A DNA stretch of 64,000 bases from an uncultured bacterium (GTDB lineage Bacteria > Hinthialibacterota > Hinthialibacteria > OLB16): positions 10,607-74,606 of the forward strand of contig CAYRBI010000003.1 of the NCBI GenBank assembly GCA_964422415.1, read 5' to 3'. The notes beneath the pieces are model-generated. The model had not been told where the DNA came from and made no database searches. It was given only the letters and a program-made list of their open reading frames with translations. A program made the translations under genes and the position numbers. The number at the start of each line of letters is the position of its first letter. Position 1 is the first letter of the stretch. Positions 7,727 to 62,138 of the stretch are shown here, piece after piece.

Positions 7727-7916
7727 GATATTCTTCGCAGATGATGGCATTGGGGCGTTCCCGCCGGCGGCAGGCGCTCCCATAATTCAACTTGCAACTG
7801 TCACACAGAAAGGACTGCCCGCCGATCAGAGTCCTGAGGCGCGAGCGGAAACGTTTCCATTTGACTACGAACCAGTTCAACGGTGAACTCCCGGGTATGG
7901 GTGTCATGCCCCCCAT
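7713..7916 (-). CDS. Hypothetical small basic Cys-rich protein (67 aa), uncertain
   Basis: Internal Met of ORF 7713..8030. Product MGGMTPIPGSSPLNWFVVKWKRFRSRLRTLIGGQSFLCDSCKLNYGSACRRRERPNAIICEEYLRKY has a C-x2-C-x7-C-x11-C pattern. It fills an otherwise 248-bp gap, and its 3' end overlaps the thrB 3' end by 14 nt. Confidence 0.3.
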   Translation of the reverse strand: MGGMTPIPGSSPLNWFVVKWKRFRSRLRTLIGGQSFLCDSCKLNYGSACRRRERPNAIICEEYLRKY

Positions 7917-7974
7917 GTGGAGCTCGACATGGGAGTGTTGGGCAATGTCTGGAATGTTAAGGAGGATGGAGTCA

Positions 7975-10359
7975 ATGTCCAAGTCCAATGTATTTCTTCC
8001 GGTTGTAGCCTGTCTCACCATCGTCATCACATGTGTGGTATTCCCATCCGGGATGGCAGCCCAATCCCAGACACCCCCTGCCGAAACCCTGGCCGGGATT
8101 GGCGCACGGTTATCACGGGAATCGACAGAAGCCTACGCCCAATGCCCATTCTCAGTCCTGTCCAAGGACTTCTTCTCGCGTTTCAGCCGGGACCCGGAGG
8201 CGCATGTGGAGACCGGCGAAGTGGAAATCACACCGGAATGGCGGATCGTGACAGTAAATCCTTCCAGTCTACTGGCTGGTCTGATGGCGGAACACTTAGC
8301 GGTCTTTCTGGATCAGCGGATGGGAGTCAAACTCACCATTTCCGCTGAAGATCCGGGAGTTGGCTCTGGAAGGAAACGCATCGTCCTTTCCGAATCCGGA
8401 GGGGGGACTCCCACCGTGCCCGGTTCGTTCACACTGCATGTCCAAGATGACCAGATCGAAATCAGCGGGATGGACCCGGAGGGACTCCGGGATGGAGTGG
8501 TCCGGCTGGTCCATGAGACCGGACTACGGGAGGCTCCTTTTGCCACCAAGGGAGAACAGATCTTCAGCCCACGCATTCCGGTCCGCCTGGGCTCGGTTCC
8601 TCAAATGGGTTCCTACCGGGACCTGGTGTTCATGGGATACAACACAGTCTTCGTGGGCGGCGGAAGTCTCTATGCCCTCTCAACCAGTAATGCCATCCCA
8701 GAACTCGTGGAACGGCGAAACCCGGGAAGCCTCGCAGCCACCCGCTCCGCTGTCACGGAGGCAAAGCGGTATGGCCTCAAGCCATACGCCTTTATCGACA
8801 TCCGCCAGAAGTTTCCCAAAGACCACCCTGTCTTTTTGAATCATCCGGAGATCCGTGGAACCCTGACCTGGAAGGCGGATGGAGAATATGTCCTCTGCAC
8901 CGAGCACCCTCTTGTAAAGCAATACTTAAGCGAGAGTGTGGAAGGATTGTTTCGTGAGGTGCCGGGGCTGGAGGGGATTACACTCATCATCGGAGGCGAG
9001 GGTTTCTACCATTGCTTCATGCGCCCGTATAATGTGGCCAAGGGGCACACCAACTGCCCGCGTTGTGAACCACTCGGCGCGGAAACCGTGGTCTCTAACC
9101 TGTGTAACACCCTCGCGGAAGCAGCACGCCGGGTGAATCCCCAGGCCCTTGTGATTGCTTGGCCGTACTCAGCGGAACATGTTTGGTCGAAAGACAAGGC
9201 CCAAGCTGGTTTCATCGAAAAGCTCAACCCGGGAACCGCCATCTTCACCGAGATTGAGAAGGATGAATATGTTGAGAAACCAGAAGGGGTACGGAAACAC
9301 CTTTGGGATTACAGTATCGACCTGATTGGCCCCGGAGAACGCGCCAAGCAGCAGATCGCGGCCTGCCAGACCCGGGGGATCCCCATCTTCCTCAAGAGCG
9401 AACCAGAGATCAGCTACGAGGCTCCCCGGCTGCCCCACATTCCTTGCATGGACCGCTGGGCCAGCCGCGCCGAGGCATTGGCATCATGTGGCGCGAGTGG
9501 GGCCTGGGTCTTCCCCGCTTTCAAACCCAATTATGGAACCAGCGCCGCCGAGCTCAACCGCTTCTTCTGGTGGAACCCCGTGGAGCCGGAAGATGAGATC
9601 CTGACCCGTCTCGCCCAGCGTATCGCGGGGAAAGCCGCCGGGCCTCATCTGCGGAAGGCCTGGGCGCTTGTGTCCGAGGCCATTCCCTTCTCTCCCGAGC
9701 TGCCCTCTTACTACACCGGCCCCTATTACCTCGGACCGGCCCACCCCATGTGTGCCGACCTGAAGGCCACCTTGCCGGAGGTCTTCTATGGATACTATCT
9801 GTTTATGGCGGAAATGACTGATAGCGAGGGAGTCAAACTGCGTCCCACCTTCGTCACCTCACCAACTGGGAATGTCCCTGTCTTTGGAGGGATGTACCGT
9901 AAGATGGAGGGACTTCTCGGCCAGGCGACGGCTGAACTCGATCAGGCTGAACCCCTGGTCGAACAACGTCACCAGCTCACCTTCCGTGCGGAGTCCTCAC
10001 CTCTTCGCTGGTTCTACCATACCGCCAGAACGGAAGCGAACTTTTATGAGTCCTGCCAACTGCGAGACCGTCTTGCCGCTCTCTCGGATGCGGGTGTGCC
10101 CTCCGGAACCCAAGCCATCGAGGCTGAACAGGCCTGGCGGAGGTGGAAGGATGTGCTGGAGAATGAGCTCGAAAACACGCAAGAAGCTCTTCCAATCATG
10201 GAAGCCGACATGCGGCTGGACTTCTATTTCGGAGGCGATCACACCTTTCCACATGGATCTGATATGCTAAAGGCGAAGCTGGAGATCCTACACAAGGAGG
10301 TTGAGGAGTATCTCCCGGGCATCGCTGGGAAGCTTGGGATTGGAGAGCGGAAAAAATGA
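7975..10359 (+). CDS. Secreted protein of unknown function (possibly glycoside-hydrolase-like)
   Basis: Start set at ATG 7975 (GGAGG 9 nt upstream), giving signal peptide MSKSNVFLPVVACLTIVITCVVFPSGMAAQ. N-terminal module (KRIVLSESGGG...FTLHVQDDQIEISGMDPEGLRDGVVRLV) resembles the N-domains of GH20/GH67/GH89-type enzymes. No catalytic motif recognised. Confidence 0.6.
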   Translation: MSKSNVFLPVVACLTIVITCVVFPSGMAAQSQTPPAETLAGIGARLSRESTEAYAQCPFSVLSKDFFSRFSRDPEAHVETGEVEITPEWRIVTVNPSSLLAGLMAEHLAVFLDQRMGVKLTISAEDPGVGSGRKRIVLSESGGGTPTVPGSFTLHVQDDQIEISGMDPEGLRDGVVRLVHETGLREAPFATKGEQIFSPRIPVRLGSVPQMGSYRDLVFMGYNTVFVGGGSLYALSTSNAIPELVERRNPGSLAATRSAVTEAKRYGLKPYAFIDIRQKFPKDHPVFLNHPEIRGTLTWKADGEYVLCTEHPLVKQYLSESVEGLFREVPGLEGITLIIGGEGFYHCFMRPYNVAKGHTNCPRCEPLGAETVVSNLCNTLAEAARRVNPQALVIAWPYSAEHVWSKDKAQAGFIEKLNPGTAIFTEIEKDEYVEKPEGVRKHLWDYSIDLIGPGERAKQQIAACQTRGIPIFLKSEPEISYEAPRLPHIPCMDRWASRAEALASCGASGAWVFPAFKPNYGTSAAELNRFFWWNPVEPEDEILTRLAQRIAGKAAGPHLRKAWALVSEAIPFSPELPSYYTGPYYLGPAHPMCADLKATLPEVFYGYYLFMAEMTDSEGVKLRPTFVTSPTGNVPVFGGMYRKMEGLLGQATAELDQAEPLVEQRHQLTFRAESSPLRWFYHTARTEANFYESCQLRDRLAALSDAGVPSGTQAIEAEQAWRRWKDVLENELENTQEALPIMEADMRLDFYFGGDHTFPHGSDMLKAKLEILHKEVEEYLPGIAGKLGIGERKK

Positions 10360-12356: not shown

Positions 12357-13459
12357 ACGCACCAGTTGTTCTAGAGCAGGGGATGGAAAGCACGCCCGGT
12401 CTCCGTACGGATAACCACCCCCGCATATCGAGATTATTATCGGAGCCAGTTCCTCCGAATATCGAGTTACCAGGATTCTGGTCCCGGATGCCTAGACTTT
12501 CGCATCGCTCCTATTTCCGGCAATTCCACCGTGAACTTGCCTTTCGTGGCATTGTATTGCTCGCCAAGCTGGTCTTATCGATGGGGATCGAGCGATCCGC
12601 GAAGATCGCCGCCTTTGTTGGCAGGTGCGGTTACTATGCTCAACGACAGCAAAGAAAGGTTGCCTTAGATAATCTGCGCATCTGTCTGGGGGACAACACC
12701 ACCGAGGAGCAGAGGCGGCAGATCGCCAAGACTGTCTTTTCCAACTTCGCCGTCGCCGCCTTGGAGGTCGCCTGGCTGAGCCGTTGGCGTGACCTCTTTT
12801 CCTGGCTGCGAATTGAAGTGGAAGGCCTGGAGAAACTGGATGCCGCTCTGGCCACTGGACGGGGAGTAATCGCGCATAATGCCCATTTTGGGAACTGGGA
12901 GGTCATGTCAGCGGCGGTCGCCAAGATGGGGTATCCCGGTTATGTGGTTGCACGGCGTCAGAAAGACCCGCGGCTGGATGCCTGGCTGGGGGCGATCCGC
13001 GAACACAGCGGCTTGAAGATTGCGATCCGGGGAGAGCATCCTGTCCGTATTCTCAGATGCCTCAAGAGTGGCGGGCTCCTAGGTTTGATGACTGATATCG
13101 ACACCCGTAGCAACGAGGGTGTTTTCGTGGATTTCTTCGGACGTCCCACGTATACTCAATCGGGTCCTTTCGCCCTGGCGCGTGCCACGGGCGCGCTCAT
13201 GATTCCGGCGCTCTGCTTCCGCGAGGGTTTGAATCATTTGCGTTTTTATTTCGGTGACCCTTGGGAAGTACCGAAGACAAACGATCCGGAGGACGATATC
13301 CTCCAAGCAGCGCGGAAGGCCAACTCGATTCTTGAGCAAAAGATACGTGAACGGCCCGAACAATGGGCCTGGTTTCATAAACGATGGAAAACCACACCCG
13401 GAAAAATCGAACAGTACCGGCGAGACAACGAGCAGGCAACCGAGGAATCGCGGGGCTGA
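12353..13459 (+). CDS. Lipid A biosynthesis lauroyl/myristoyl acyltransferase family protein (LpxL/HtrB-like)
   Basis: ATGA overlap with the upstream stop. N-terminal membrane anchor. Family motif AHNAHFGNWEV (HxxxxE) and downstream LMTDID...FFGRPTYTQSGPFALA. Confidence 0.8.
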   Translation: MNAPVVLEQGMESTPGLRTDNHPRISRLLSEPVPPNIELPGFWSRMPRLSHRSYFRQFHRELAFRGIVLLAKLVLSMGIERSAKIAAFVGRCGYYAQRQQRKVALDNLRICLGDNTTEEQRRQIAKTVFSNFAVAALEVAWLSRWRDLFSWLRIEVEGLEKLDAALATGRGVIAHNAHFGNWEVMSAAVAKMGYPGYVVARRQKDPRLDAWLGAIREHSGLKIAIRGEHPVRILRCLKSGGLLGLMTDIDTRSNEGVFVDFFGRPTYTQSGPFALARATGALMIPALCFREGLNHLRFYFGDPWEVPKTNDPEDDILQAARKANSILEQKIRERPEQWAWFHKRWKTTPGKIEQYRRDNEQATEESRG

Positions 13460-14175
13460 TCCCCTGGTTGGGAGGAGTCTTCTGGTTGGTCCTGTGGGGT
13501 TGGCTCCTAATCCCACGGCAGAGGATTGAGGTACCCAACGAGATGGATCTCCTTTCCCGGACTGAGTCCACCATCAAGCTACAGGGCTTCCGAGTCCGTC
13601 AGGAAACCCGGTACACCGATGGAAGTTGCACTTATACAGACCTGCAAGCTGAGCGCGGTTGGAACCTCGAAGAGACACGGGACTCACATGTCCTGGTCAA
13701 TGTGGATGTCCGTCTGGTTCCCAAAAAGGTCCCTCAGAACGCCACGGCCACGGAAGGACTTGAGAGCATTTCAGCCCAGGCTGATGTCGCCTGGGTGCTC
13801 ATCAAGGCCGCCACTGGAATCTGGTCAATCAAGACTCGCAATATCGACCTGATGGGGAATGTCCAGATTTTTGGATATTCCATGCAAGGTGAACTCTCTG
13901 AATGGATCGCCACCGAACGGCTCTCATATGATCAAAAAGAAGACATGGTCCGCTCGCTTTCTCCCGCCACATATGAGGGGAAGTCCTTACAGATTGGCCA
14001 AGCCTACCGTTGTTTTGTGGAAACCGATGTGGACTTGGACGAGCCCAGAATCACCGATATTGAGACCCTGCCGAGTGACTTCCCTACACCTTTCCAGCAT
14101 CCAGAAATGATGCCGCCCTATTCGCCACCCGAGGCATTGCGCTTCCTCTCTGAGGAACCACAGGCTCCCTCTTGA
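13384..14175 (+). CDS. Membrane-anchored periplasmic protein, possibly LptC-like
   Basis: N-terminal TM (LIPWLGGVFWLVLWGWLLI) followed by a beta-rich region (IKTRNIDLMGNVQIFGY...LSYDQKEDMV). Sits directly after the LpxL-like gene, with which the only ATG start overlaps by 76 nt. Function is tentative. Confidence 0.4.
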   Translation: MENHTRKNRTVPARQRAGNRGIAGLIPWLGGVFWLVLWGWLLIPRQRIEVPNEMDLLSRTESTIKLQGFRVRQETRYTDGSCTYTDLQAERGWNLEETRDSHVLVNVDVRLVPKKVPQNATATEGLESISAQADVAWVLIKAATGIWSIKTRNIDLMGNVQIFGYSMQGELSEWIATERLSYDQKEDMVRSLSPATYEGKSLQIGQAYRCFVETDVDLDEPRITDIETLPSDFPTPFQHPEMMPPYSPPEALRFLSEEPQAPS

Positions 14176-19573: not shown

Positions 19574-20758
19574 ATGAAACGACGGCAATTCCTGCTGAAC
19601 TCAGCCGCGGCATCCCTGGCGGCCGCTTCGCTCTCCACCTTGACCAAGGGGAGCCGCCCGGTTCATGCCGTTCCCGGTCCAGCCAAGGATGGCCGGAGGA
19701 TCACATATGCCGGCTGGCAGGCTGGCATCACCTACCAGGTTCCCGATCCCAAGGGTGTCACACGGGACTATCTCATGCGGCTGCTCGATGAGATGGCCAC
19801 CCACCGCATGAACCTGCTCAGCCTGATGATGATCAGTTATGGCATCTTCGATCCCGTCCATGATGGATATTGCTGGCCAGTACGCAACGAAAAGCTCAAG
19901 CATTATGTCGACACACCCGCGCTCAATGCGAATCCCTCCACGGAATATGTCAAGGAGGTGATCAAAGCGGCGGGCGACCGTGGCATCATGGTCAACCTGT
20001 TCATGAATTGCGGCATCTGGAACGCGGAGAAGATCCGCCAAGGCTATCCCGGGGCTCTGCAGCAACAGACACGCAAGGAAGCGGAAGAGAACCTTCCCGG
20101 TAGTTGGGTGCATTGCTTTGATTCCTCCGGCGGCTGGCAGGCGGCGCTGGATGAAGTAACGGATCTGCTGAGTTTTTACGACTCGCCCAATGTGACCAGT
20201 TATGGCCTGGAACGGCTCAGTTATACCAGCCCGGAATCTTGTTACTGCAAGGCGACCCAGGAACGTTTCCTGCGTGAAACCGGCCACCCCCTGCTCGAGG
20301 CCACACCGGATAGTTTCGAAGCCTGGAAGACCGGGAACATCACACGGTATCTGCGCGAGTATACCCAGCGCATCCGGCGGTTGCGTCCGAATCTGGAGGT
20401 CTGGCTGCACACGCAATGCGCACCCGGCTGGGGACATGACCCGAAACAACTCGCGGCGGCAGGCATCTCTGGGCTGTTACCGCATTACATCCAATTCAAG
20501 GAAAGTGAAGCCCAAAACCATCAGCGCTTGCAGCGCCTTGCGCCCAACCCATGTGTTCTCCATTTCTGCTCGCGCGACCAGGCGCCGAAAAACTATCCAA
20601 TCTGGATCAAGACACCCGAAATCATCAAAGAGGCCACCGATTGGGCCCTCCGCTACCCCGGCGATAACCTGAATGGCCTTTTGTTCTTCAACGAAACCGC
20701 CACCTCAGCCACAAACAGAAGGGCGGTCTATGAACAAATCAAACGCTTTTCATGGTAA
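19574..20758 (+). CDS. Tat-signal secreted protein of unknown function
   Basis: Twin-arginine leader MKRRQFLLNSAAASLAAASLSTL. The 394-aa body has no motif I can assign; it may be a TIM-barrel hydrolase-like protein. Preferred over the antisense shadow ORF 19601..20449. Confidence 0.65.
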   Translation: MKRRQFLLNSAAASLAAASLSTLTKGSRPVHAVPGPAKDGRRITYAGWQAGITYQVPDPKGVTRDYLMRLLDEMATHRMNLLSLMMISYGIFDPVHDGYCWPVRNEKLKHYVDTPALNANPSTEYVKEVIKAAGDRGIMVNLFMNCGIWNAEKIRQGYPGALQQQTRKEAEENLPGSWVHCFDSSGGWQAALDEVTDLLSFYDSPNVTSYGLERLSYTSPESCYCKATQERFLRETGHPLLEATPDSFEAWKTGNITRYLREYTQRIRRLRPNLEVWLHTQCAPGWGHDPKQLAAAGISGLLPHYIQFKESEAQNHQRLQRLAPNPCVLHFCSRDQAPKNYPIWIKTPEIIKEATDWALRYPGDNLNGLLFFNETATSATNRRAVYEQIKRFSW

Positions 20759-26226: not shown

Positions 26227-26961
26227 CTACCAGTCCTCTTTGAGATTTTTGACAGTCACCGCATCGGCGGATTCATAGGGTTCCAACCACTGGCCCGCCA
26301 CTTGATACCAGAGAGCCACCCCGAGAGGTCCCTCGGCGAAGGCCGTGGAGTCTTCATCGGTGATCTGCAGGGGAAAAGTTACGGGCTCTTCATCGACTTG
26401 AGCCCAGATCTTGGCGCGGACCTTGACCGGCGCCTGTCCATAAATCTGGATCCAGACCTTGTTGAACTGGTCCGCTTTCACCGCAACCGGACCACTCTGA
26501 AGGGCCGATGACCGCCAACGGCCCTCGCCGGAATGTTTCTCCAGCCAAGCCTTTCCCCCCTCGATCCGGAGCCGGTATCCCGAGTAGGTTTCCTCACCGG
26601 TACCAGCACGGACCACCACACAGACACCGGTACGGTGCAACGGCCAGCGCAGCATCTCGATCCGGAACTCATAGTCCTCGGACCGGAGCGGACCGGAGGC
26701 GATACCCGCCGAGGCCTCGTAATCAAACGTGTTCTTCCAGGTGACAGTACCGGGATGATTGAAGAGATCAAGTGGGTGCTCACCCGTCCAATGCTTCCAT
26801 TTATCCAGATTTCCACAACAGAAGGCATCATGAAAAAGTAAATCAGGAGAAGGCTTGCCTTTCGCGGGCGCCTCACACACAGCGGGAGAAAGCAGTGACA
26901 GACACAAGAACAGGAACGACAGACAGTGTTTTCTTAGCATAGAAATCCGTTTAAGTGACAC
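26227..26961 (-). CDS. Secreted beta-sandwich protein of unknown function (LamG/DUF1080-like?)
   Basis: Signal peptide (CLSFLFLCLSLLSPAVCEA). Beta-rich body. The domain assignment is only an impression. Confidence 0.5.
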   Translation of the reverse strand: MSLKRISMLRKHCLSFLFLCLSLLSPAVCEAPAKGKPSPDLLFHDAFCCGNLDKWKHWTGEHPLDLFNHPGTVTWKNTFDYEASAGIASGPLRSEDYEFRIEMLRWPLHRTGVCVVVRAGTGEETYSGYRLRIEGGKAWLEKHSGEGRWRSSALQSGPVAVKADQFNKVWIQIYGQAPVKVRAKIWAQVDEEPVTFPLQITDEDSTAFAEGPLGVALWYQVAGQWLEPYESADAVTVKNLKEDW

Positions 26962-29398: not shown

Positions 29399-29478
29399 AT
29401 GGATTGCCGCTTTCGCGGGAATGTCGATCCACAGTGGACATCCCTCACACTGTCATTCCCGCGAAGGCGGGAATCCAT
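29399..29478. repeat. Nested-palindrome repeat, copy 1 (left arm degenerate)
   Basis: ATGGATTGCCGCTTTCGCGGGAATG ... GTCATTCCCGCGAAGGCGGGAATCCAT. Related to the copies at 35779 and 62051. Lies between the ABC ATPase and permease genes. Confidence 0.8.
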
Positions 29479-32374: not shown

Positions 32375-35300
32375 TCAGGAGATTGACGAAATAGGAGAGC
32401 CGGGCGGTGTGGTAAACAAATCCGCCTGGCGCTCGATAACCACAACGGCTCTTATCCCACGCAGGCTCTTGAGCCGGTCTAGAAGAACTGTGGAGGGGAC
32501 TACCCGTGGCGACCCAAGCCGCGAGATCAGACGCCGCACCCCTGACCGCTTGATGATCCCCGCGCCGTTCTCAAAAACAAGAGGAATTCCTCGTTCTCCA
32601 CCGGAAAACCATCGTAAAAAGAGAGAGAGTTGTTCGAGTACCTCGGCGGTGGAGTCCTCCAAGACCACCTTAATTTGACTCCAAGACTCACTGGCATTCC
32701 CTAACAGCGCGGGTGTTTCGCATTCCCGCAACAGATACTGGGGGAGGCCCTGCCCGGTGTAGGGGCGCGAACGGACTTCACAGAAGAGCGGCCAAGGCTC
32801 TTTGAGGTGCATCCGGTAGCCATCCAGCCGCGCGGCCTCTGGGATTGGATGAGGGAGAAGGCTGAGCACCTTGCCGGATTCATCCACCACCCGGTAGACA
32901 GTCTCTTGGTTGAAAAGAAGGAAGGTCACCCAAGGTGATTGGGACACACCACCCGGTTGCGGTTCTCCCGCGGTAGCGAACACATCCACCTCATGGACCC
33001 AGCCCATTTGAAGCCAATCCGGCTGCCTGGCAAGACCCCCCTCAGCAAACCATTCCTGGGGAAACCATTCCCGGAAAGGCTCAAGTGGATTCTGGATGAT
33101 TCCCAGGCGCAACAGGCTGAGTTCGAGGTGTTCCTCGTGATGCAGGCTTAAACTATCCGGACCAACAATGGCGGCCGTTGTTGAATGGGCTTGCCCGGGG
33201 CGGACAGGGAAGAGGGTTTGCTGCGCGGCCCCACCGCCCTGAGCACGCAAGGAGAGGTGCCGGGCGCGGGCCTCGGTAAGGAGTGCTCCGGTGTTATGGC
33301 CGAAAGGCTCGAAAACACCCAGACGGATCAGTTGTGAAAGGAGGTTCCAACTCAGCCGGTGTTCAGGCCAGGACTTGAGCCATTCCTCCCACGAGAGATC
33401 CGGTACCGTTGGGGGCGGCTGGAATAGATCCCGTAAACCACCCCCCTGCAAAGAGCTGGGATAGGATGCCTCCAGGTCCATGGAAATCTGCGGTCCCACC
33501 CCAAGGATATTCTGTGTCCCCAAACGAAGCTGCCCTGTAGATGGTGAGAAATCATAACGCCCACCCGGAACCGCGCGAGGCGGGTCGAGCCGCGTGCCGC
33601 GCGCTCTCAGCAGGCTGTAGAGTTCACGGCGATCCTCGGTTTCACCGGGATAGAGGTAAGACAGGATCGCAGTCATTGCCGCGGGATCCCGCGCAAAGGC
33701 ATCGGCCATGGCCAGCAGCTGCTCAGCCTTCCTTAAAAACTCAGGACGGGATGGAAGGGGGTTGGGATTACCCAGGAACTGGACCACCGTTTCCCTTGTG
33801 TTCCGGTCCCACACATGTTGATCCCGGCTGGAGACCGGGTCCGGTTGCGGCCCCCCCTCTTCCAGGGAGAGCCACAGATCCATCTCCTCCGCTGTCAGGC
33901 GAAGAGCAGCGGTTCCCACCTGGTGGATCTGCTCCCGGTAGAGGAGCCAACCTCCCGTTCCTTGAGTGAACCGTTCCAAAGCTGCGCCAACATCCCCACG
34001 GATCCTGGCATCGAGGCCACTCTCATCAGCGGATCTGGTCCAATCCTCCCACCAGGGAGGCACTCCTCCTTCGGAGCGGAGAGGGTGTTCTCTTTGGACT
34101 GCGATCAGACGCAGATTCTCCCGCTGGGTCCAGAAGGACCAATGCCAGGCTAAAGCGAGCAGGTCCGCCAGCTCACCAATGAATGTGGGCATGGCCGCAC
34201 AGATCCACCTCCAGAGGAGCGGACGGTAACCAGTGGAACCGGGAATGGTCAACAGGCGCAGGAGCGATGCTGAAAGGCCGAGAACCTCGATCTTGCCAGT
34301 GTCATCCGCATACCCCTGATCCCGGAAGACCTCGCCGCGATGCTTCTCGATCCAGGTGGTAATCGATTCACGGGATTCTTCGCGGCGGGGCAGGACCGGG
34401 ACAGTGTCCCGGTAAAACGGCGCGCAGGAGAGGGTCTGAGTATTCGATGCCAAGAGCCGCAGAACCAAGGTTCCCACGGTCAGGGCATCGATGGGGTCTG
34501 TGTCCAATTCTGGATACCCGGTTTTCGCGGGCGCGAACACCTGTTCGAGGTTGACCGCAGAGACAATCAGCGAGGCCGGAGCATCACTGGAGGTGGAGCC
34601 TCCCCCTTGATCCAGGAAAGATGGGAGTGGAGGAAGCTTATCCGGGGGATCACCGGGAAATTCCAGATCCTCCCAGTGGGCAAGCAAACGGTAGCCAGCA
34701 TGGACAAGATCCTCATGGTCATCTGGGGCGGGAGCCGCGAAGCCACATCTTCCTTTCCCCAACAGAGCATTGAGAGACGCGAGTACCTCCTGCTCCCATT
34801 GGTGAGGGCAATCCACCTCGACTGGAGCATGAAGAGAGTCTTGAACTCCAGGATGGAAGGAGATGCCTTCATGGTAGGGATCGACACGGGTCAGGCCGAG
34901 GAGATGCGCGAAGAGCGAGGAGGTGGTCCATTCAGCTGTAGGCCGGAGTGTCCCCGGTGGCAGCCCCAGCCGCTTACGAACATCCCACAGGAGAAGCCAC
35001 ACAGTGGGCCAGCGGGTCTGTTTGAGGTATTGGAATTCTTCGACCAGCCGCTCCTTGACCCCTTCCCGGCGGATATGACCGGTGGCGATGGCGGTTTCCT
35101 GACCTAGGGTCCAAAAGAAGGAGGCGGCATCGGTACCCCGTGGAACCGGGTAGACCGGGAAGGTCAAACCACTGTGTTGATAGGGATCGAAGGGTTTGGC
35201 GGTCAGCTTCTCGACACCACGGAAGGCAGGAGTAAGCCCTTGCAGGAGCCTTACCACCCGCTCCGCATGGGGAATACGCCCTGGCAGATCTCTTGAACTG

Positions 35301-36163
35301 GTGACATTTCCCTGCCCCGTAAGCCGTGCGGCACATCCCCAGAAACGGTCATGCTGTGTCCGGTAGGCGGCTTGTACACACGCGAGCGGCGGAATTGGAA
35401 GAGGCGACCGGGAGGGAGAGGTTGTGGCGGTTTCTATAATCCCACCCGTTCGTGAATCAAAACAACAGAGACCTACTTGATCATGTGGCCACTGTTCCAG
35501 AAATGTGGACATCCAAGCAAAGCGTTCTCTGTCTGCACGGTTGGTAGGAATCCGTTGAAGAGCTGATCCAGCCAATCCCGCCACCAGGAAAACTCCCTCA
35601 CAGAAATTCAAAAGAACCTCGGGATGAACACCCTTTTCCGCCGATAGATCCCAGGCTTGTTTGATCTTGAGCAGATTCCGGAAGCCGGCATGGTTGACCG
35701 CAAGCAGGGCGGCCCGCTCACAAGCACAAGCTGGAGTACCATTAGCAATCCGTTGAATAACTCTTTGTTCTTTTGGCACCATGGATTCCCGCCTTCGCGG
35801 GAATGACGATTTCCGAAGAATTTCGCTTATTCTGTCATTCCCGCGAAGGCGGGAATCCATGGTCACGTTCTCTTTCAACAGGCTGTTGGGGGACAGTAAG
35901 AGATCGAAGACATCGGGACTCCGGATCTCTGCTAGGCCTGAAGGGGGTGTAATGAGAACTGTCATCCCGGCCAGACCCAGCATGTGGTTTCTGGCGCAGG
36001 CCTCCAGGAAGCTTGGTCCTCCCTGGAGGGTACCCGTGTCCACCAACGCGGCTACACGGTAGCCCACCTCGGCGGCCGCCTGGACCAGCAGGTTGGGTGG
36101 CACAATCCCCCCCATACGGTCATGGGAGGACTGTAACAGGATAAGGGGCCCATGGTTTGGCAT
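32375..36163 (-). CDS. Highly divergent DnaE (DNA polymerase III alpha)-like protein with degenerate catalytic motifs
   Basis: Collinear with DnaE landmarks (PHP-like N-terminus, LGLTRVDP, KIEVLGL, YREQIHQV...EEMDLW, LGVFEPFG...QQTLFP, OB-like C-terminus), but PDxDxDF is replaced by PVEVDCP. Start chosen at ATG 36163 (AAGGA 9 nt upstream, MPNHGPLILLQSS). The ORF is open to 36217. Confidence 0.75.
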   Translation of the reverse strand: MPNHGPLILLQSSHDRMGGIVPPNLLVQAAAEVGYRVAALVDTGTLQGGPSFLEACARNHMLGLAGMTVLITPPSGLAEIRSPDVFDLLLSPNSLLKENVTMDSRLRGNDRISEILRKSSFPRRRESMVPKEQRVIQRIANGTPACACERAALLAVNHAGFRNLLKIKQAWDLSAEKGVHPEVLLNFCEGVFLVAGLAGSALQRIPTNRADRERFAWMSTFLEQWPHDQVGLCCFDSRTGGIIETATTSPSRSPLPIPPLACVQAAYRTQHDRFWGCAARLTGQGNVTSSRDLPGRIPHAERVVRLLQGLTPAFRGVEKLTAKPFDPYQHSGLTFPVYPVPRGTDAASFFWTLGQETAIATGHIRREGVKERLVEEFQYLKQTRWPTVWLLLWDVRKRLGLPPGTLRPTAEWTTSSLFAHLLGLTRVDPYHEGISFHPGVQDSLHAPVEVDCPHQWEQEVLASLNALLGKGRCGFAAPAPDDHEDLVHAGYRLLAHWEDLEFPGDPPDKLPPLPSFLDQGGGSTSSDAPASLIVSAVNLEQVFAPAKTGYPELDTDPIDALTVGTLVLRLLASNTQTLSCAPFYRDTVPVLPRREESRESITTWIEKHRGEVFRDQGYADDTGKIEVLGLSASLLRLLTIPGSTGYRPLLWRWICAAMPTFIGELADLLALAWHWSFWTQRENLRLIAVQREHPLRSEGGVPPWWEDWTRSADESGLDARIRGDVGAALERFTQGTGGWLLYREQIHQVGTAALRLTAEEMDLWLSLEEGGPQPDPVSSRDQHVWDRNTRETVVQFLGNPNPLPSRPEFLRKAEQLLAMADAFARDPAAMTAILSYLYPGETEDRRELYSLLRARGTRLDPPRAVPGGRYDFSPSTGQLRLGTQNILGVGPQISMDLEASYPSSLQGGGLRDLFQPPPTVPDLSWEEWLKSWPEHRLSWNLLSQLIRLGVFEPFGHNTGALLTEARARHLSLRAQGGGAAQQTLFPVRPGQAHSTTAAIVGPDSLSLHHEEHLELSLLRLGIIQNPLEPFREWFPQEWFAEGGLARQPDWLQMGWVHEVDVFATAGEPQPGGVSQSPWVTFLLFNQETVYRVVDESGKVLSLLPHPIPEAARLDGYRMHLKEPWPLFCEVRSRPYTGQGLPQYLLRECETPALLGNASESWSQIKVVLEDSTAEVLEQLSLFLRWFSGGERGIPLVFENGAGIIKRSGVRRLISRLGSPRVVPSTVLLDRLKSLRGIRAVVVIERQADLFTTPPGSPISSIS
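35779..35862. repeat. Nested-palindrome repeat, copy 2, inside the DnaE-like coding sequence (in frame)
   Basis: 35779-35807 (CCATGGATTCCCGCCTTCGCGGGAATGAC) is the exact reverse complement of 35834-35862. Translated in the host frame as MDSRLRGNDRISEILRKSSFPRRRESM. Confidence 0.85.
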
Positions 36164-36317
36164 ACACGGGAATCCTTGGGAAAAGGGAGCAAAATGACAA
36201 GACACCCCCATTCCCATATACTGCTCGAGCCGGTATAGTCACTTTCAACACCGGGCCCATGAGGATGCAGGATTTCCCCATGCGGCTCAAGACAGGCCGA
36301 TTTCCCCGGAGTAAAAA

Positions 36318-37307
36318 ATGGCAACCAAACGTACCAAAGACCAGAAAGGCACCTGGGTCACCTACCGTCCCGATATCAAGGTAATGGACTGCACGGTCCG
36401 GGATGGTGGCCTGATTAACAACCACAACTTCGAGGACTCTTTTGTCCGCGCGGTCTACCAAACATGTGTCGCCGCGGGTATCGACTACATGGAAATCGGC
36501 TACAAAGGAGCCCAGCGCCTCTACTCCCCCACCGAGCATGGCAAGTGGAAGCATTGCAGCGAAGACGACCTGCGCCGCATCATGGATGACAATCCGGCCA
36601 ATCTGAAAATTTCAGCCATGGCCGACGCGGACCGGTGTGATTACCACGTGGATATTCTCCCCAAAAAGGAGAGCGTCCTCGATATGATCCGCGTGGCCTG
36701 CTACATCAATCAGATCCCCACCGCGATCGACATGGTCAAAGATGCCACCGATAAGGGGTATGAAACCACAGTCAACATCATGGCGGTCTCGACAGTCCAT
36801 GAAAAAGACCTGCTGGAAGCCCTCGAGGTCCTGGCCGAAACCCCCGTCGGCTCGGTGTACATTGTGGACAGCAACGGCGCCCTTTATTCAGAGGAAATCC
36901 AGGATCTCACACGTCAATTCCGCCGGGCCTTGAATGGGACGGATAAACTAGTGGGGATCCACGCCCACAACAATCAACAATTAGCCTACGCCAACACCAT
37001 CGAGGCCATTGTTTGTGGGGCGAGTATGCTCGATGCAACCATCAACGGTATGGGACGTGGCGCGGGGAACTGTCCGCTCGAACTGCTCATCGGATTCCTG
37101 CACAATCCGAAATTTAAGCTGCGTCCCATCTTGGAGTGCATTCAAAACGTATTTCTTCCCATGCGGGACAAGATGGAGTGGGGGTATCAGCTGGCCTATA
37201 TGGTCACTGGCCAGCTCAACCAACACCCACGCTATGCCATTAAGGTACGTGAGAGTTCAACCCCGGATGATATTGTCGGTTTTTACGACCAAATGACAAA
37301 CGATTAA
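36318..37307 (+). CDS. HMGL-like (pyruvate carboxyltransferase domain) aldolase family protein
   Basis: VMDCTVRDGGL, GIDYMEIGY, GIHAHNNQQLAYANT and LDATINGMGRGAGNCPLE are DRE-TIM metallolyase signatures, as in 4-hydroxy-2-oxovalerate aldolase. Confidence 0.8.
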   Translation: MATKRTKDQKGTWVTYRPDIKVMDCTVRDGGLINNHNFEDSFVRAVYQTCVAAGIDYMEIGYKGAQRLYSPTEHGKWKHCSEDDLRRIMDDNPANLKISAMADADRCDYHVDILPKKESVLDMIRVACYINQIPTAIDMVKDATDKGYETTVNIMAVSTVHEKDLLEALEVLAETPVGSVYIVDSNGALYSEEIQDLTRQFRRALNGTDKLVGIHAHNNQQLAYANTIEAIVCGASMLDATINGMGRGAGNCPLELLIGFLHNPKFKLRPILECIQNVFLPMRDKMEWGYQLAYMVTGQLNQHPRYAIKVRESSTPDDIVGFYDQMTND

Positions 37308-38191: not shown

Positions 38192-39625
38192 ATGACCTTT
38201 AACTCTTTCACTTTTGTTTTCTTCTTTCTGATTGTCTACTCGCTCTACCTGATTCTCAACCATCGCGGGCAGAACCGGATGCTCCTGGTAGCGAGCATTA
38301 TCTTTTATGGCTGGTGGGACTGGCGCTTTCTCTCCCTGTTGTTTGTCTCGATCGGGATTGATTATGTATGCGGGTTGGGGATGGGATCGACAGAATCTCC
38401 CACGAAACGGCGCCTCTATCTCCTGATTGCAGTGTGCGGTGATCTAGGAATTCTATTCTTTTTCAAATACTTCAATTTTTTCCTGGAAACGGGGGCCGAG
38501 TTTCTCACCTTCCTGGGATTTCAGGCTCATCCCAAAACCCTAGGGATCATCCTCCCCATCGGGATTTCCTTTTACACCTTCCAGGCCATGAGCTACACCA
38601 TCGATGTCTACCGGCGGGAGACTCAACCGATCCGTAGTATCGCGGATTTCTGCTTGTACATCCTGTTCTTTCCCCAGCTGGTGGCTGGCCCCATCGAGCG
38701 TTCCACCAACCTGCTGCCCATGATCTTGAAGGAGCGGAGTTTAAATTGGCCGCAATTCAGGGCGGGGCTTTCGTTGATACTGATGGGGTATTTCAAGAAG
38801 ATCGTGGTGGCCGACAACCTGGCGCCAGTGGTGGATTCCGTCCTGGATTCTCCCGGCGTAATGCTTCTTTCTGGGGTAAATATCCTGATCGGGGTATATG
38901 CCTTCGCCTTTCAGATCTATGGTGATTTCGCGGGTTACAGCGATATCGCACGGGGAATGGCCAAGATGATGGGCTTTGAGCTGATGCTCAACTTCAACCG
39001 CCCGTATTTCGCCACCAATCCCTCGGATTTCTGGCGCCGTTGGCACATCAGCCTCTCCACCTGGCTGCGGGATTATCTCTACATTCCACTGGGCGGCAGC
39101 CGCCATGGAACCTTCGCCACCTACCGCAACCTCATGGTCACGATGGTGCTGGGGGGACTCTGGCATGGCGCGGCCATCCATTTCGTCCTGTGGGGTTTTT
39201 ACCATGGTCTCCTCTTGGTCCTCTACCGTCCGGTGGCCAATGGAATCACCCGTTTGACATCGGGATTGCCCACACTGTGGAGACAACCACTGACAGTTGT
39301 CTCGATGATCTTCATGTTCCACTTGAGCTGCTATGGCTGGCTGCTTTTCCGTGTGTCCACCTGGCGGCGGATTGGGATCATGACCAACCACCTCTTCACC
39401 CAATTCTCTCCAGGCACGATCCACCTGCCCTTCGTGGCTCCACTCCTGTACTTCGCGCTCCCACTCCTGCTCTATGAAATTATGCTGGAATCGAAAGCCC
39501 GGCCAGGTGGCCCACACCAGCCTATTCCAGTCTGGCTGAACAGTCTGATGCATGTGTACATGTTCACGATGATCCTGTGTCATGGAGTTTTGGAAGGTGC
39601 CCAGTTCATCTATTTTCAGTTTTGA
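38192..39625 (+). CDS. MBOAT-family membrane-bound O-acyltransferase (AlgI/DltB/PatA-like)
   Basis: 477-aa polytopic protein. FWRRWHISLSTWLRDYLYIPLGGSRHG and LGGLWHGA contain the conserved MBOAT His. Confidence 0.9.
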   Translation: MTFNSFTFVFFFLIVYSLYLILNHRGQNRMLLVASIIFYGWWDWRFLSLLFVSIGIDYVCGLGMGSTESPTKRRLYLLIAVCGDLGILFFFKYFNFFLETGAEFLTFLGFQAHPKTLGIILPIGISFYTFQAMSYTIDVYRRETQPIRSIADFCLYILFFPQLVAGPIERSTNLLPMILKERSLNWPQFRAGLSLILMGYFKKIVVADNLAPVVDSVLDSPGVMLLSGVNILIGVYAFAFQIYGDFAGYSDIARGMAKMMGFELMLNFNRPYFATNPSDFWRRWHISLSTWLRDYLYIPLGGSRHGTFATYRNLMVTMVLGGLWHGAAIHFVLWGFYHGLLLVLYRPVANGITRLTSGLPTLWRQPLTVVSMIFMFHLSCYGWLLFRVSTWRRIGIMTNHLFTQFSPGTIHLPFVAPLLYFALPLLLYEIMLESKARPGGPHQPIPVWLNSLMHVYMFTMILCHGVLEGAQFIYFQF

Positions 39626-40748
39626 ACTCATCCGCGAGCTGGCCAGCTCAATCCGTGCCCACTTCTCTCCACAGGACCGGTGGACCATTACATGGTGCAC
39701 TGTGTTCTTCCTTCCAGCCTTCGCGGTCTCGCTTCTGTCACCCATTGAGGTAGTCTCATCGAGATTCTTGAAATCCAATCCCATCCGTGTGGTCCATGAT
39801 CCCATCACGACCCCCAAGCTGGGGTTCTGCGAGGTGACTGAAGATGGCCTGGTCTACTACCCCACGGAGATCGAGGCCAACGCCTCGGTCCTTGTGATTG
39901 GGAACAGTCATTCAGACTGGATCATGTACCCACAGTGGATTGAACGGGAAGGACGTAACCAGAACCACCGGATCGCCGTCTACAGCGCGGCGCGTCCAGC
40001 CTGCTCCGCCATCGAAATGCTGGATACGCTCATTTATCTTCTAAAAACCACCTCACGGCGGTTCGATGCAATCCTCATCAAACCCGGCAATCCCTTCTTC
40101 GATGATATCGCCCATCCCTTCGAGAAGGAGAAATCAGACCCACTCATCGGGAGTGGCTTCTCGGTCATCTACACAGGGATGCCGTTAGCTGAATCTCCCT
40201 TCAGTTGGAGAGATCACCTCCAAACCGTCCTCCAGAAGCGGAGAACCGACCTGACCTTGATCGAACGCACGCACCGGATGAAACAAATGCACGACCAGAC
40301 TCTGCCTGGACCAGAGGTGGAACTTGTCACCAGCCTCCCCGCTGAGCTGCAGGCACTCATGGACCAGGAAGCAAACCGTCATGAACATGTTCTCACGGAG
40401 ATGGTCCGCATTTGCAAGGCGGCTGGAATCCCGCTGGCATTGATGACTACACCGGGAAGGCAATTCGATCTGACGGATCCAGAGGTCCTTGCGATGAAAT
40501 CCACCACCCCAGCCTTTTTTAATCGATATAGCCTTCTGGGCCTCAATCACCTGCTGACCGGGCGTTTCAATGCCTGCGTCCGGAAAGTGGTCTCCCAGGA
40601 GGGGAGCCAGATCATTGACACAGAGGCCTTCGTGGAGACCTTGCCGAAAGACGAGAACCATTACAGTGATTTTGTGCATCTCAACTTCAAAACCGAGGAG
40701 ATGCACGGAAAGTATGTATACCGCCGGCTGCGGGAGATGGGATTGTAG
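39582..40748 (+). CDS. Membrane-anchored SGNH-like partner protein of the MBOAT (AlgJ/AlgX/PatB/DltD-like role inferred)
   Basis: Follows the MBOAT gene with a 44-nt overlap. N-terminal TM (WCTVFFLPAFAVSLLSPI), VLVIGNSHS block and C-terminal HYSDFVHLN (DxxH-like). Start codon is uncertain. Confidence 0.5.
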   Translation: MEFWKVPSSSIFSFELIRELASSIRAHFSPQDRWTITWCTVFFLPAFAVSLLSPIEVVSSRFLKSNPIRVVHDPITTPKLGFCEVTEDGLVYYPTEIEANASVLVIGNSHSDWIMYPQWIEREGRNQNHRIAVYSAARPACSAIEMLDTLIYLLKTTSRRFDAILIKPGNPFFDDIAHPFEKEKSDPLIGSGFSVIYTGMPLAESPFSWRDHLQTVLQKRRTDLTLIERTHRMKQMHDQTLPGPEVELVTSLPAELQALMDQEANRHEHVLTEMVRICKAAGIPLALMTTPGRQFDLTDPEVLAMKSTTPAFFNRYSLLGLNHLLTGRFNACVRKVVSQEGSQIIDTEAFVETLPKDENHYSDFVHLNFKTEEMHGKYVYRRLREMGL

Positions 40749-62050: not shown

Positions 62051-62138
62051 GACCATGGATTCCCGCTTTCGCGGGAATGACGATTTCCATTAAAAATCCC
62101 CTGATCCGTCATTCCCGCGAAAGCGGGAATCCATGGTC
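62051..62138. repeat. Nested-palindrome repeat, copy 3 (perfect 32-bp terminal inverted repeats)
   Basis: GACCATGGATTCCCGCTTTCGCGGGAATGACG (62051-62082) is the exact reverse complement of 62107-62138, with a 24-nt AT-richer centre. Each arm is itself a hairpin (ATTCCCGC-TTTC-GCGGGAAT). Confidence 0.9.

Follow-up and report, generated by a model that had tools for sequence, protein, structure and literature searches.

The stretch of DNA analysed here, 64,000 nucleotides of contig CAYRBI010000003.1 from an uncultured bacterium of the phylum Candidatus Hinthialibacterota (in the following referred to as the window), carries on its minus strand a gene predicted to encode a full-length homologue of DnaE, the α-subunit of DNA polymerase III (Pol III α), in which the polymerase active site appears to have been erased. 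We propose, with a probability of roughly 0.6 for the combined interpretation, that this DnaE-like protein represents a polymerase-dead paralogue of the DnaE1 type which is specific to the Hinthialibacterota and would act as a non-catalytic scaffold tethered to the β sliding clamp. Judging from the protein sequence we are rather confident of the pseudo-polymerase part of this interpretation, and the clamp-scaffold mechanism is put forward tentatively, at slightly less than even odds.

Homology to DnaE and domain architecture

The minus-strand open reading frame (ORF) at positions 32375-36217 comprises 1280 uninterrupted codons from its first ATG, as stated in the original prediction, which had been made from the DNA sequence without database searches. 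Residue numbers are counted from this ATG (36217) throughout, although the true start of the gene is probably M19 at position 36163 (ATGCCAAAC). M19 is the conserved start, is preceded by AAGGA at a distance of 9 nt and yields a protein of 1262 amino acids (aa), the length likewise given by the NCBI gene call (P0001). The ATG at 36217 is not conserved among the orthologues and lies out of frame in one of them (L002). The gene and the domains of its product are located as follows:

32375..36163, minus strand: DnaE-like gene, probable start M19, stop codon 32375-32377, 1262 aa
35168..36160, minus strand: degenerate PHP domain, aa ~20-350 (sub-threshold match to PF02811, alignments)
33611..35167, minus strand: polymerase core of palm, thumb and fingers, aa ~351-869, collinear with DnaE, catalytic residues apparently erased
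33233..33610, minus strand: tandem HhH / β-binding domain, aa ~870-995, including LGVGPQI and LIRLGVFEPFG (HMMER, hhalign, structure model)
33209..33223, minus strand: internal β-clamp-type motif QQTLF, aa 999-1003, occupying the alignment columns of the DnaE motif Qxx(L/M)F
32708..33025, minus strand: OB-fold domain, aa ~1065-1170 (hhalign, structure model)
32438..32707, minus strand: C-terminal domain, aa ~1171-1260, collinear with the DnaE C-terminal domain (hhalign)
32414..32428, minus strand: putative second clamp motif QADLF, aa 1264-1268, at the extreme C-terminus

The kinship to DnaE is not evident from single-sequence searches of the profile databases. Both Pfam matches were sub-threshold (PF02811, PHP, 19.5 bits with a cut-off of 26.4; PF07733, DNA_pol3_alpha, 11.7 bits with a cut-off of 23.9), and so was the best NCBIfam match, TIGR00594 (24.8 bits, cut-off 434). 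All NCBIfam DnaE equivalogs scored below 20 bits (cut-offs 873-1806) and the NCBIfam error-prone DnaE model reached 14.6 bits (cut-off 939). The relationship becomes clear only with a family profile. A hidden Markov model (HMM) built from eight family sequences matched the DnaE1 of Mycobacterium tuberculosis (7pu7) with an E-value of 1e-15 over the PHP domain and the N-terminal part of the palm, and with a second stretch corresponding to the HhH domain (residues 844-989). The hhalign comparison of eleven family members with 83 canonical DnaEs gave a probability of 100% and an E-value of 4e-50 over 1035 columns at 17% identity, pairing residues 20-1260 collinearly with residues 3-1141 of a DnaE of 1142 aa. 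By homology and by the order of its domains (PHP, palm, thumb, fingers, HhH, clamp motif, OB, C-terminal domain) the protein belongs to the C-family superfamily, and its original description as a collinear, full-length DnaE homologue was thus borne out.

The predicted structure is in line with this assignment. The AlphaFold2 (AF2) model of residues 19-1218, based on a multiple sequence alignment (MSA) of 72 sequences comprising the family, its relatives from Candidatus Sumerlaeota (see below) and canonical DnaEs, reached a mean predicted local distance difference test score (pLDDT) of 82.7 and a predicted template modelling score (pTM) of 0.83. In a Foldseek search of the PDB its top 14 matches were all Pol III α structures from M. 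tuberculosis, Thermus aquaticus and Escherichia coli (E-values 1e-29 to 1e-20), followed by PolC; the fold matches include 7pu7, 4iqj, 2hpi and 5fku. The OB-like region towards the C-terminus, which had also been anticipated, is collinear with DnaE in hhalign and forms β-barrel strands in the model (fragment residues 1051-1149, pLDDT 82-95). In E. coli the C-terminal domain of DnaE binds τ.

Catalytic and ligand residues

Active C-family polymerases possess three invariant catalytic aspartates, D401, D403 and D555 in E. coli, the first two of which constitute the catalytic pair in the motif PD-x-D-x-D-F (PMC3919608). The equivalents of this and of other polymerase motifs were assigned as follows:

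34805..34831, minus strand: palm strand equivalent to MPDxDxDF, aa 463-471, with P465 at D401, E467 at D403 and D469 at D405
34445..34474, minus strand: palm strand equivalent to GLLKxDFLGL, aa 582-591, with V585 at K553 and R587 at D555
34271..34309, minus strand: thumb motif ADDTGKIEVLGLS, aa 637-649, equivalent to the canonical DD..T[YF][DE][ML]L
34877..34951, minus strand: remnant of GPGRGSAAGSLVAY.LGIT.IDP, aa 423-447, with R425, S434, D446 and P447 kept
33848..33955, minus strand: fingers remnant, aa 755-790, in which TGGWLLYREQ keeps Y and E-Q of YQEQ

HMMER, MAFFT L-INS-i and hhalign agree on a single register, which places A-P465-V-E467-V-D469-C-P471 opposite P-D401-x-D403-x-D405-F-x. 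Across the 15 family members the D401 position is occupied by P, S, V, L, W, R, E, Q, A, G or T. At the D403 position 13 members carry an acidic residue (E or D), P0004 carries Q and P0014/L010 carries G; at D405 all 15 have D or E, and P471 is invariant. On the second strand (G582-T-L-V585-L-R587-L-L-A) the K553 position shows V, G, N, C or H and the D555 position R, N, Q, E or V. Both strands are confident β-strands in the AF2 model, the D555-equivalent one with a pLDDT above 90. The profile alignment therefore does not place acidic residues at all three catalytic positions, D401 and D555 being the ones affected.

The peptides on which the original prediction relied (LILLQSS, LRPTAEWTTSSLFAHLLGLTRVDP, APVEVDCP, KIEVLGL, ALAWHWSF, YREQIHQVG...LSLEEG, LGVFEPFG and QQTLFP) are all present in the translation. 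The claim that every functional motif is degenerate holds for D401, D555, the GS motif, the fingers and the PHP site but goes too far for the D403 and D405 positions, where acidic residues persist. KIEVLGL (aa 642-648) had furthermore been taken for the D555 motif KFDFLGL. This assignment had to be given up in view of the MAFFT and hhalign alignments, the spacing of the flanking motifs, the thumb consensus and its helical conformation in the model; the peptide is part of the thumb motif, reads TYEML in P0012, and corresponds to SFDML in E. coli. The actual D555 strand is LVLRLLA (aa 584-590), with R587 in place of the aspartate. ALYRPGP, said to have become ALAWHWSF, is indeed degenerate, but it is split by an insertion of 18 aa into ALAW ... 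REHPL.

Two other ways of recovering a catalytic triad were considered and rejected. Shifting the register by two residues, which would bring E467 and D469 onto D401 and D403, moves the invariant P471 to the D405 position; two members still show Q or G, and no counterpart of D555 is regained. Reading the acidic E-V-D together with E644 as a conserved triad fails because E644 lies in the thumb helix, and because the first position is Q in P0004 and G in P0014.

The remaining ligand sites are similarly affected. The nucleotide-binding GS (G361/S362) is replaced by P, L or V followed by T, S or K, and a 3-aa insertion at this site bears the invariant W430. In the fingers motif LRRAMGKK the arginine falls in a gap and the lysine is changed to glutamate; of YGFNKSH, the alignment leaves Y, F and N opposite a gap, with P in place of the H. 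The PHP proofreading exonuclease depends on nine metal ligands, HHDHEH[C/H]DH (PMC12926913). In the DnaE-like family the H-x-H has become L-x-[Q/R/H/K/F], the histidine of TDH is variable and the glutamate of GxE is replaced by T or another residue, so that the metal site is not retained, judging from those of the nine positions that were mapped. D60 is the sole acidic or histidine residue of the PHP domain that is at least 90% conserved in canonical DnaEs and kept here.

An objective count was obtained by mapping the 99 positions that are at least 90% conserved in the 83 canonical DnaEs through the hhalign alignment. Only 30 of them are kept, mostly Gly, Pro, Leu and Phe together with the structural charged residues D60, R390, E394, D412, R425 and D446. 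The losses comprise GS of GRGS, ERFLN, the first catalytic Asp, K553, D555, LGL, the F, Q and E of GVFQxE, the P and G of RPGP, the Q of YQEQ, the fingers Arg/Lys and YGFNKSH, and the second catalytic Asp is mostly replaced by Glu. Neither the Asp triad nor the set formed by GS of GRGS, K553, the fingers Arg/Lys and YGFNKSH, both characteristic of active C-family enzymes, is therefore present. We conclude from these alignments that the two-metal polymerase site, the dNTP-binding site and the PHP metal site have probably all been erased, and that the protein, as originally suggested, very probably cannot polymerise DNA.

Putative clamp-binding motifs and other conserved features

In a linker that is variable elsewhere, Q999, T1001 and F1003 of the internal QQTLF are invariant; the motif lies where a flexible loop of low pLDDT begins. 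The consensus of clamp-binding motifs is QL[S/D]LF, with positions 1, 4 and 5 being critical, and a strong motif is found only in DnaE1 and PolC, that of DnaE2 and DnaE3 being weak or Pro-rich (PMC3919608). As in proteins of the DnaE1 type, QxxLF stands straight after the HhH domain and is followed by the OB and C-terminal domains. The strong-type motif along with these two domains points to a DnaE1-type ancestor and to a continued selective pressure for predicted clamp binding. Of the 14 sequences extending to the C-terminus, 13 carry a second Q-x-x-[L/M/I]-F there.

The palm N-terminal region contains strongly conserved stretches (PRGTD, QETAIATGHI, EEFQYLKQT.WP, LWDLRRRLGLPPGTLRP and SSLFAHLLGLTRVDP). 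Invariant patches rich in Trp and Arg that are specific to the family (PPWW..WERF, GYRPLLWKW, ESIT.WIEKHRG and FLGNPNPLP) suggest the presence of new interaction surfaces.

Distribution and selection

The family comprises 15 distinct sequences, all of them from metagenome-assembled genomes (MAGs) of Candidatus Hinthialibacterota (OLB16), a phylum of free-living heterotrophs split off from the Omnitrophota and including one MAG of 100% completeness (PMC9324843). A search of 5.8 billion clusters returned eight members. The exhaustive HMMER scan of 1.84 billion representatives returned seven full-length clusters at 50% identity as well as fragments, with the score dropping from 1137 to 133 bits below the family. 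A scan of GTDB species identified six species with the gene. The names given to carriers are "Candidatus Hinthialibacteria bacterium OLB16" and "Omnitrophota ... OLB16-2", with a further contig bearing the label p_OLB16.

The ORF, 3.6-3.8 kb in length, is intact in 14 of the 15 distinct orthologues at mutual identities of 34-70%, and about 190 columns are invariant among eight sequences. Orthologues riddled with frameshifts, as would be expected of a dead gene, were looked for, and a single frameshift was encountered in one of the 15, the copy of the OLB16 type MAG (L012, LMZT01000138, at ~12800-12913), just upstream of the internal clamp motif. Since the ~270 codons that follow are open in the new frame, including a C-terminal QLLF, this looks like a sequencing or assembly error or a very recent lesion.

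The ratio of nonsynonymous to synonymous substitution rates (dN/dS, NG86) between the window copy and its two closest full-length relatives is 0.10-0.135, with synonymous divergence (dS) being saturated. For the adjacent genes encoding the HMGL-like protein, MBOAT and hydrolases the values are 0.03-0.07, apart from one noisier hydrolase pair (0.13), and the DnaE-like gene evolves about threefold faster than its neighbours. In the same genome pairs the DnaE-like protein is 63-68% identical compared with 88-91% for the flanking HMGL-like protein, and in more distant pairs 39% and 38% compared with 80% and 67%. The family is kept by purifying selection, in agreement with the original prediction: the intact ORFs and the low dN/dS indicate a functional gene, and the rates show that it evolves much faster than a replicase would.

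Genomic context

The DnaE-like gene stands alone and is transcribed divergently from the gene predicted to encode an HMGL-like protein (in the window, L002, L003/L004, L005, L008 and L010). The latter (36318-37307, plus strand, 329 aa, of the pyruvate carboxyltransferase/aldolase type, 67-91% identity) is the only conserved neighbour and is so in the closer half of the family. Conservation of the neighbourhood is thus partial, as the chromosomal synteny is conserved in the closer members and the HMGL-like gene is lost from this position in the distant ones. A functional link between the two genes seems unlikely. The region between them is the following:

36164..36317, no strand: divergent intergenic region of 154 bp, shared with the HMGL-like gene

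This region is ~80% identical in the window, L002, L005 and L008 and contains the conserved blocks TCTTGAGCCGC, AAATCCTGCATCCTCA and ACTATACCGGCTCAAGCA. Since this identity persists despite saturated synonymous sites in the flanking genes (dS >1), its sequence suggests that the region may hold shared regulatory elements. A promoter scan revealed no convincing σ70 promoter on the strand of the DnaE-like gene.

Neither imuA, imuB nor other genes for Y-family or RecA-like partners were detected in the window (64 kb) or in the ±10 kb around the gene at 13 family loci, and genes of the dnaN, dnaX, dnaQ or lexA type were not detected near the DnaE-like gene. The canonical DnaE P0226, labelled "Candidatus Omnitrophota", was considered as a co-resident replicase and discarded since it belongs to an unrelated assembly (GCA_043822665.1). 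PADLOC gave no match for the DnaE-like protein, and the sole PHROG match was marginal (phrog_405, "DNA polymerase", E-value 0.0011). Taking furthermore into account the conserved chromosomal synteny, the gene does not qualify as part of a defence or phage module.

The window represents ordinary chromosomal DNA of 53-60% GC, which also encodes FolD, sugar transferases, a subtilase, ComEC, Wzy, an ABC/FtsX transporter, a nitrilase-type hydrolase, a DUF134 protein, the HMGL-like protein, MBOAT, GlnD, SpoIID and similar functions. No second C-family polymerase was found in it, and scans of the window for tRNAs and Rfam families gave no match. ORFs without a Pfam match at an E-value of at most 1e-5 are located at 7792-10359 (plus strand, 855 aa), 13384-14175 (plus, 263 aa), 19574-20758 (plus, 394 aa) and 26227-26961 (minus, 244 aa); one more, at 39582-40748 (plus, 388 aa), is without a match at an E-value of at most 1e-3. 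Sizeable ORFs of this kind are typical of the poorly characterised phylum Hinthialibacterota.

The window copy of the DnaE-like gene is interrupted in frame by a palindromic element:

35744..35893, minus strand: in-frame insertion of ~48 aa in the PHP domain, present in none of the orthologues, with a perfect 30-nt inverted repeat as its core

The arms of the repeat (ACCATGGATTCCCGCCTTCGCGGGAATGAC and its reverse complement; 35778-35807 and 35834-35863, 30 nt each) are 26 nt apart. The insertion adds "...MDSRLRGNDR...SSFPRRRESM..." to the protein, keeps the frame, comes out as disordered in the AF2 model (fragment residues 86-143, pLDDT <50) and sits in a loop of variable length among the orthologues. 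Two further copies of this element, which resembles miniature inverted-repeat transposable elements (MITE) or repetitive extragenic palindromes (REP), lie in intergenic positions of the window (29401-29476 and 62057-62132). An unrelated protein with a Wzy_C domain (P0009) shares 80% identity over the inserted stretch alone, so that the element may sit in frame in other genes, too.

DnaE homologues without catalytic aspartates in Sumerlaeota

About 27 of the 134 representatives among the next-best matches of the exhaustive search also lack PDxDxD, GRGS and KxDxLG. Most of these form one coherent family of ~55 clusters (90% identity), assigned to Candidatus Sumerlaeota by NCBI and named there "PHP domain-containing protein" or "DNA polymerase III subunit alpha" (P0026, P0028, P0030-P0039 and P0163-P0212; ~1030-1130 aa). 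In this group D401, D403 and D555 are absent, the fingers core from YQEQ to YGFNKSH is deleted, and 32 of the 99 conserved positions are kept. Its hhalign score against canonical DnaE is 1307, compared with 449 for the window family, which in turn is roughly equidistant from the Sumerlaeota group (481) and canonical DnaE. The two families may go back to one inactivation event or to two.

In both Sumerlaeota loci inspected (L015 8001-11186 and L016 8001-11186) the gene has a housekeeping context and is followed by a gene encoding a cyclophilin-type peptidyl-prolyl isomerase (PPIase). A guess from match lengths that the nearest relatives of the window protein are DnaE2 proteins was abandoned, as these proved to be the Sumerlaeota proteins without the aspartates and as the clamp motif is of the DnaE1 type. 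Two small groups, P0025/P0027 and P0048/P0070 (~1130-1150 aa), are likewise devoid of PDxDxD, GRGS and KxDxLG. The longest BLAST alignment to the window protein, over aa 312-980, is that of P0025, whose "VLRFADHHLTTSS" recalls "TLRPTAEWTTSS" of the family.

Proposed role and alternative explanations

According to the interpretation favoured here the DnaE-like protein would associate with the β sliding clamp on primer-template or duplex DNA, where it could serve as a scaffold, placeholder or regulator that recruits or excludes other factors. A scaffold role is proposed because the conserved parts are those that would hold DNA or partners, i.e. the HhH and OB domains, the internal clamp motif, the C-terminal QxxLF, the C-terminal domain and the Trp/Arg patches. 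The logic would resemble that of ImuB, a dead Y-family polymerase, or of the dead polymerase module of the eukaryotic Pol ε. The likeness to ImuB had already been drawn in the original prediction; it stands as an analogy of logic but does not extend to gene context, as no imuA- or imuB-like partners occur nearby. Without catalysis by the DnaE-like protein the true replicase would have to come from another gene of the same genome, and since every bacterium surveyed encodes a canonical replicase we infer the same for the carriers of this gene. A bolder version, which we regard as unlikely, is that in Hinthialibacterota, and in parallel in Sumerlaeota, the machinery of replication or repair includes a dedicated "dead arm", a structural or regulatory replisome subunit that binds the β clamp and perhaps τ and DNA.

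Several points weigh against the scaffold interpretation or temper it. No conserved operon partner was found, the neighbours being the HMGL-like aldolase-type gene, DUF134, hydrolases and an ABC transporter, and in tblastn searches of 16 loci (±10 kb) and the window canonical DnaEs matched only the family gene itself. The presumed inability to catalyse nucleotidyl transfer is deduced from the sequence, and the putative binding of the clamp by QQTLF is predicted from the conservation and position of the motif. E467 and D469 persist at the D403 and D405 positions, and one metal ion could therefore still be bound. Moreover, AF2 performed poorly when given the MSA of the eight family sequences only (pLDDT 52, pTM 0.40); as the canonical DnaEs in the larger MSA bias the prediction towards the DnaE fold, the model corroborates the hhalign result and is not an independent proof.

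The persisting carboxylates may be read in two other ways. The remodelled palm/PHP pocket could catalyse or bind something new, such as a different nucleotidyl transfer, a hydrolysis, or a nucleotide or second messenger to be sensed, with the DnaE scaffold delivering this activity to clamp-loaded DNA. Such a neofunctionalisation would fit the very strong conservation of the N-terminal palm region with its invariant pocket residues (R360-G-x-D363, H381, K388/R390, E393/E394, D412, R414/R416, R425, W430, H438, E467/D469) and the acidic residue at D403 in 13 and at D405 in all of the 15 members, and the Pol-β-like nucleotidyltransferase superfamily tolerates variation between D and E. However, R390, E394, D412, R425, D446 and P447 are conserved in canonical DnaE as well and seem to be structural, the triphosphate-binding GS motif is gone, and neither a new catalytic motif nor a Pfam, NCBIfam, PADLOC or significant PHROG match beyond DnaE/PHP was found, so that we consider it rather improbable. 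Alternatively, the protein could be a very divergent yet active replicase or translesion polymerase using E467, D469 and another carboxylate as its metal site. E or D at two neighbouring positions of the catalytic strand, together with a strong clamp motif and a complete DnaE1-like architecture, would suit a processive polymerase, and canonical dnaE was not found in the ±10 kb around the gene at the family loci. Yet E467 gives way to Q in P0004 and to G in P0014/L010, no constraint is seen at the positions of D401 and D555, and the protein is without K553, GS, the fingers Arg/Lys and YGFNKSH. In contrast to replicases, the gene has a much higher evolutionary rate than its neighbours, a DnaE1 or DnaE3 with invariant Asp is present in every bacterial genome surveyed (PMC3919608, PMC12926913), and the Hinthialibacterota are free-living heterotrophs represented by near-complete MAGs (PMC9324843). 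An active polymerase is hence very improbable.

That the gene is a decaying, functionless relic with a fortuitously long ORF is scarcely credible. The palindromic insertion in the window copy, the frameshift in the OLB16 type MAG and a dN/dS above that of the neighbours could be quoted in its favour, but the insertion preserves the frame in a length-variable loop, the open codons behind the frameshift are those of a sequencing error or a very recent event, and the ORF is intact in 14 of 15 lineages with a dN/dS of ~0.1 and many invariant residues. We therefore retain the polymerase-dead, probably clamp-tethered paralogue as the best explanation.

If this holds true, the family would constitute a fifth, non-catalytic class of the C-family and its first reported dead member, and the concept of the pseudo-polymerase known from ImuB and the C-terminal half of Pol ε would extend to the bacterial replicase family; in the "dead arm" the inactive Pol ε module and ImuB would have their first counterpart within the bacterial C-family. 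The protein would also offer a natural separation-of-function variant for studying non-catalytic roles of Pol III α, namely clamp occupancy, contacts to τ and the clamp loader, and DNA handling. Automatic annotation of such proteins as "DNA polymerase III subunit alpha" can furthermore mislead estimates of completeness and replisome inventories of candidate phyla.

Comparison with known systems

The catalytic aspartates of the C-family are regarded as invariant in every member, which distinguishes it from all other bacterial polymerase families (PMC3919608). A survey of ~2000 genomes from 2013 recognised only DnaE1, DnaE2, DnaE3 and PolC (PMC3919608), as did a survey of more than 3000 complete genomes from 2026 (PMC12926913). 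Both report inactive homologues only from other families, e.g. Y, X and B, and no inactive C-family group, which agrees with the original statement that the known classes all keep the Asp triad. No Hinthialibacterota or Sumerlaeota genome was found in the available part of the supplementary text of the 2026 survey (PMC12926913), and full-text literature searches yielded no description of a C-family protein without the aspartates or of replication proteins of either phylum. Within the literature searched, a full-length C-family homologue that lacks the catalytic aspartates and is under selection is new.

With DnaE1 of E. coli, T. aquaticus and M. tuberculosis the window protein shares the order of domains, the length class, the fold and the internal Qxx(L/M)F; the α-subunit of E. 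coli also carries a second QxxLF at its C-terminus, as the window family does. It differs from DnaE1 in its low identity (17%) and scores below the Pfam and NCBIfam cut-offs, in keeping 30 of the 99 conserved positions, in its fast evolution and in the lack of D401, D555, K553, the GS motif, the fingers Arg/Lys, YGFNKSH and the PHP ligands. Like DnaE2, the window protein would be non-replicative, a second paralogue of the C-family in which the PHP site is disrupted. DnaE2, however, has retained the Asp triad together with its polymerase activity (PMC3919608), and its clamp motif is weak and Pro-rich and its OB and C-terminal domains are variably kept, whereas the window family has the strong QQTLF and both domains.

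ImuB similarly combines a polymerase fold lacking the catalytic carboxylates with a clamp-binding motif and is kept by selection (PMC12926913, PMC11791113). In contrast to the window protein it belongs to the Y-family and is encoded in a LexA-regulated cassette with imuA and dnaE2, nothing comparable being present at the family loci. The C-terminal half of Pol ε and inactivated archaeal PolB paralogues are further dead folds of replicative polymerases that persist as structural parts of the replisome. These B-family modules represent another polymerase family, in another domain of life, without sequence kinship to the window protein.

A parallel case is the Sumerlaeota group, although its proteins (~1060 aa) have only 17-20% identity to the window protein, lack the fingers core, pass the Pfam DNA_pol3_alpha model (precomputed) and keep the N-terminal H-x-H of the PHP domain in many members. 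In both families the Asp triad is gone and the HhH domain kept, both are restricted to one phylum and encoded by a solitary gene in a housekeeping context, and the clamp-motif-like xxTLF/SLF of the Sumerlaeota proteins parallels the QQTLF of the window family.

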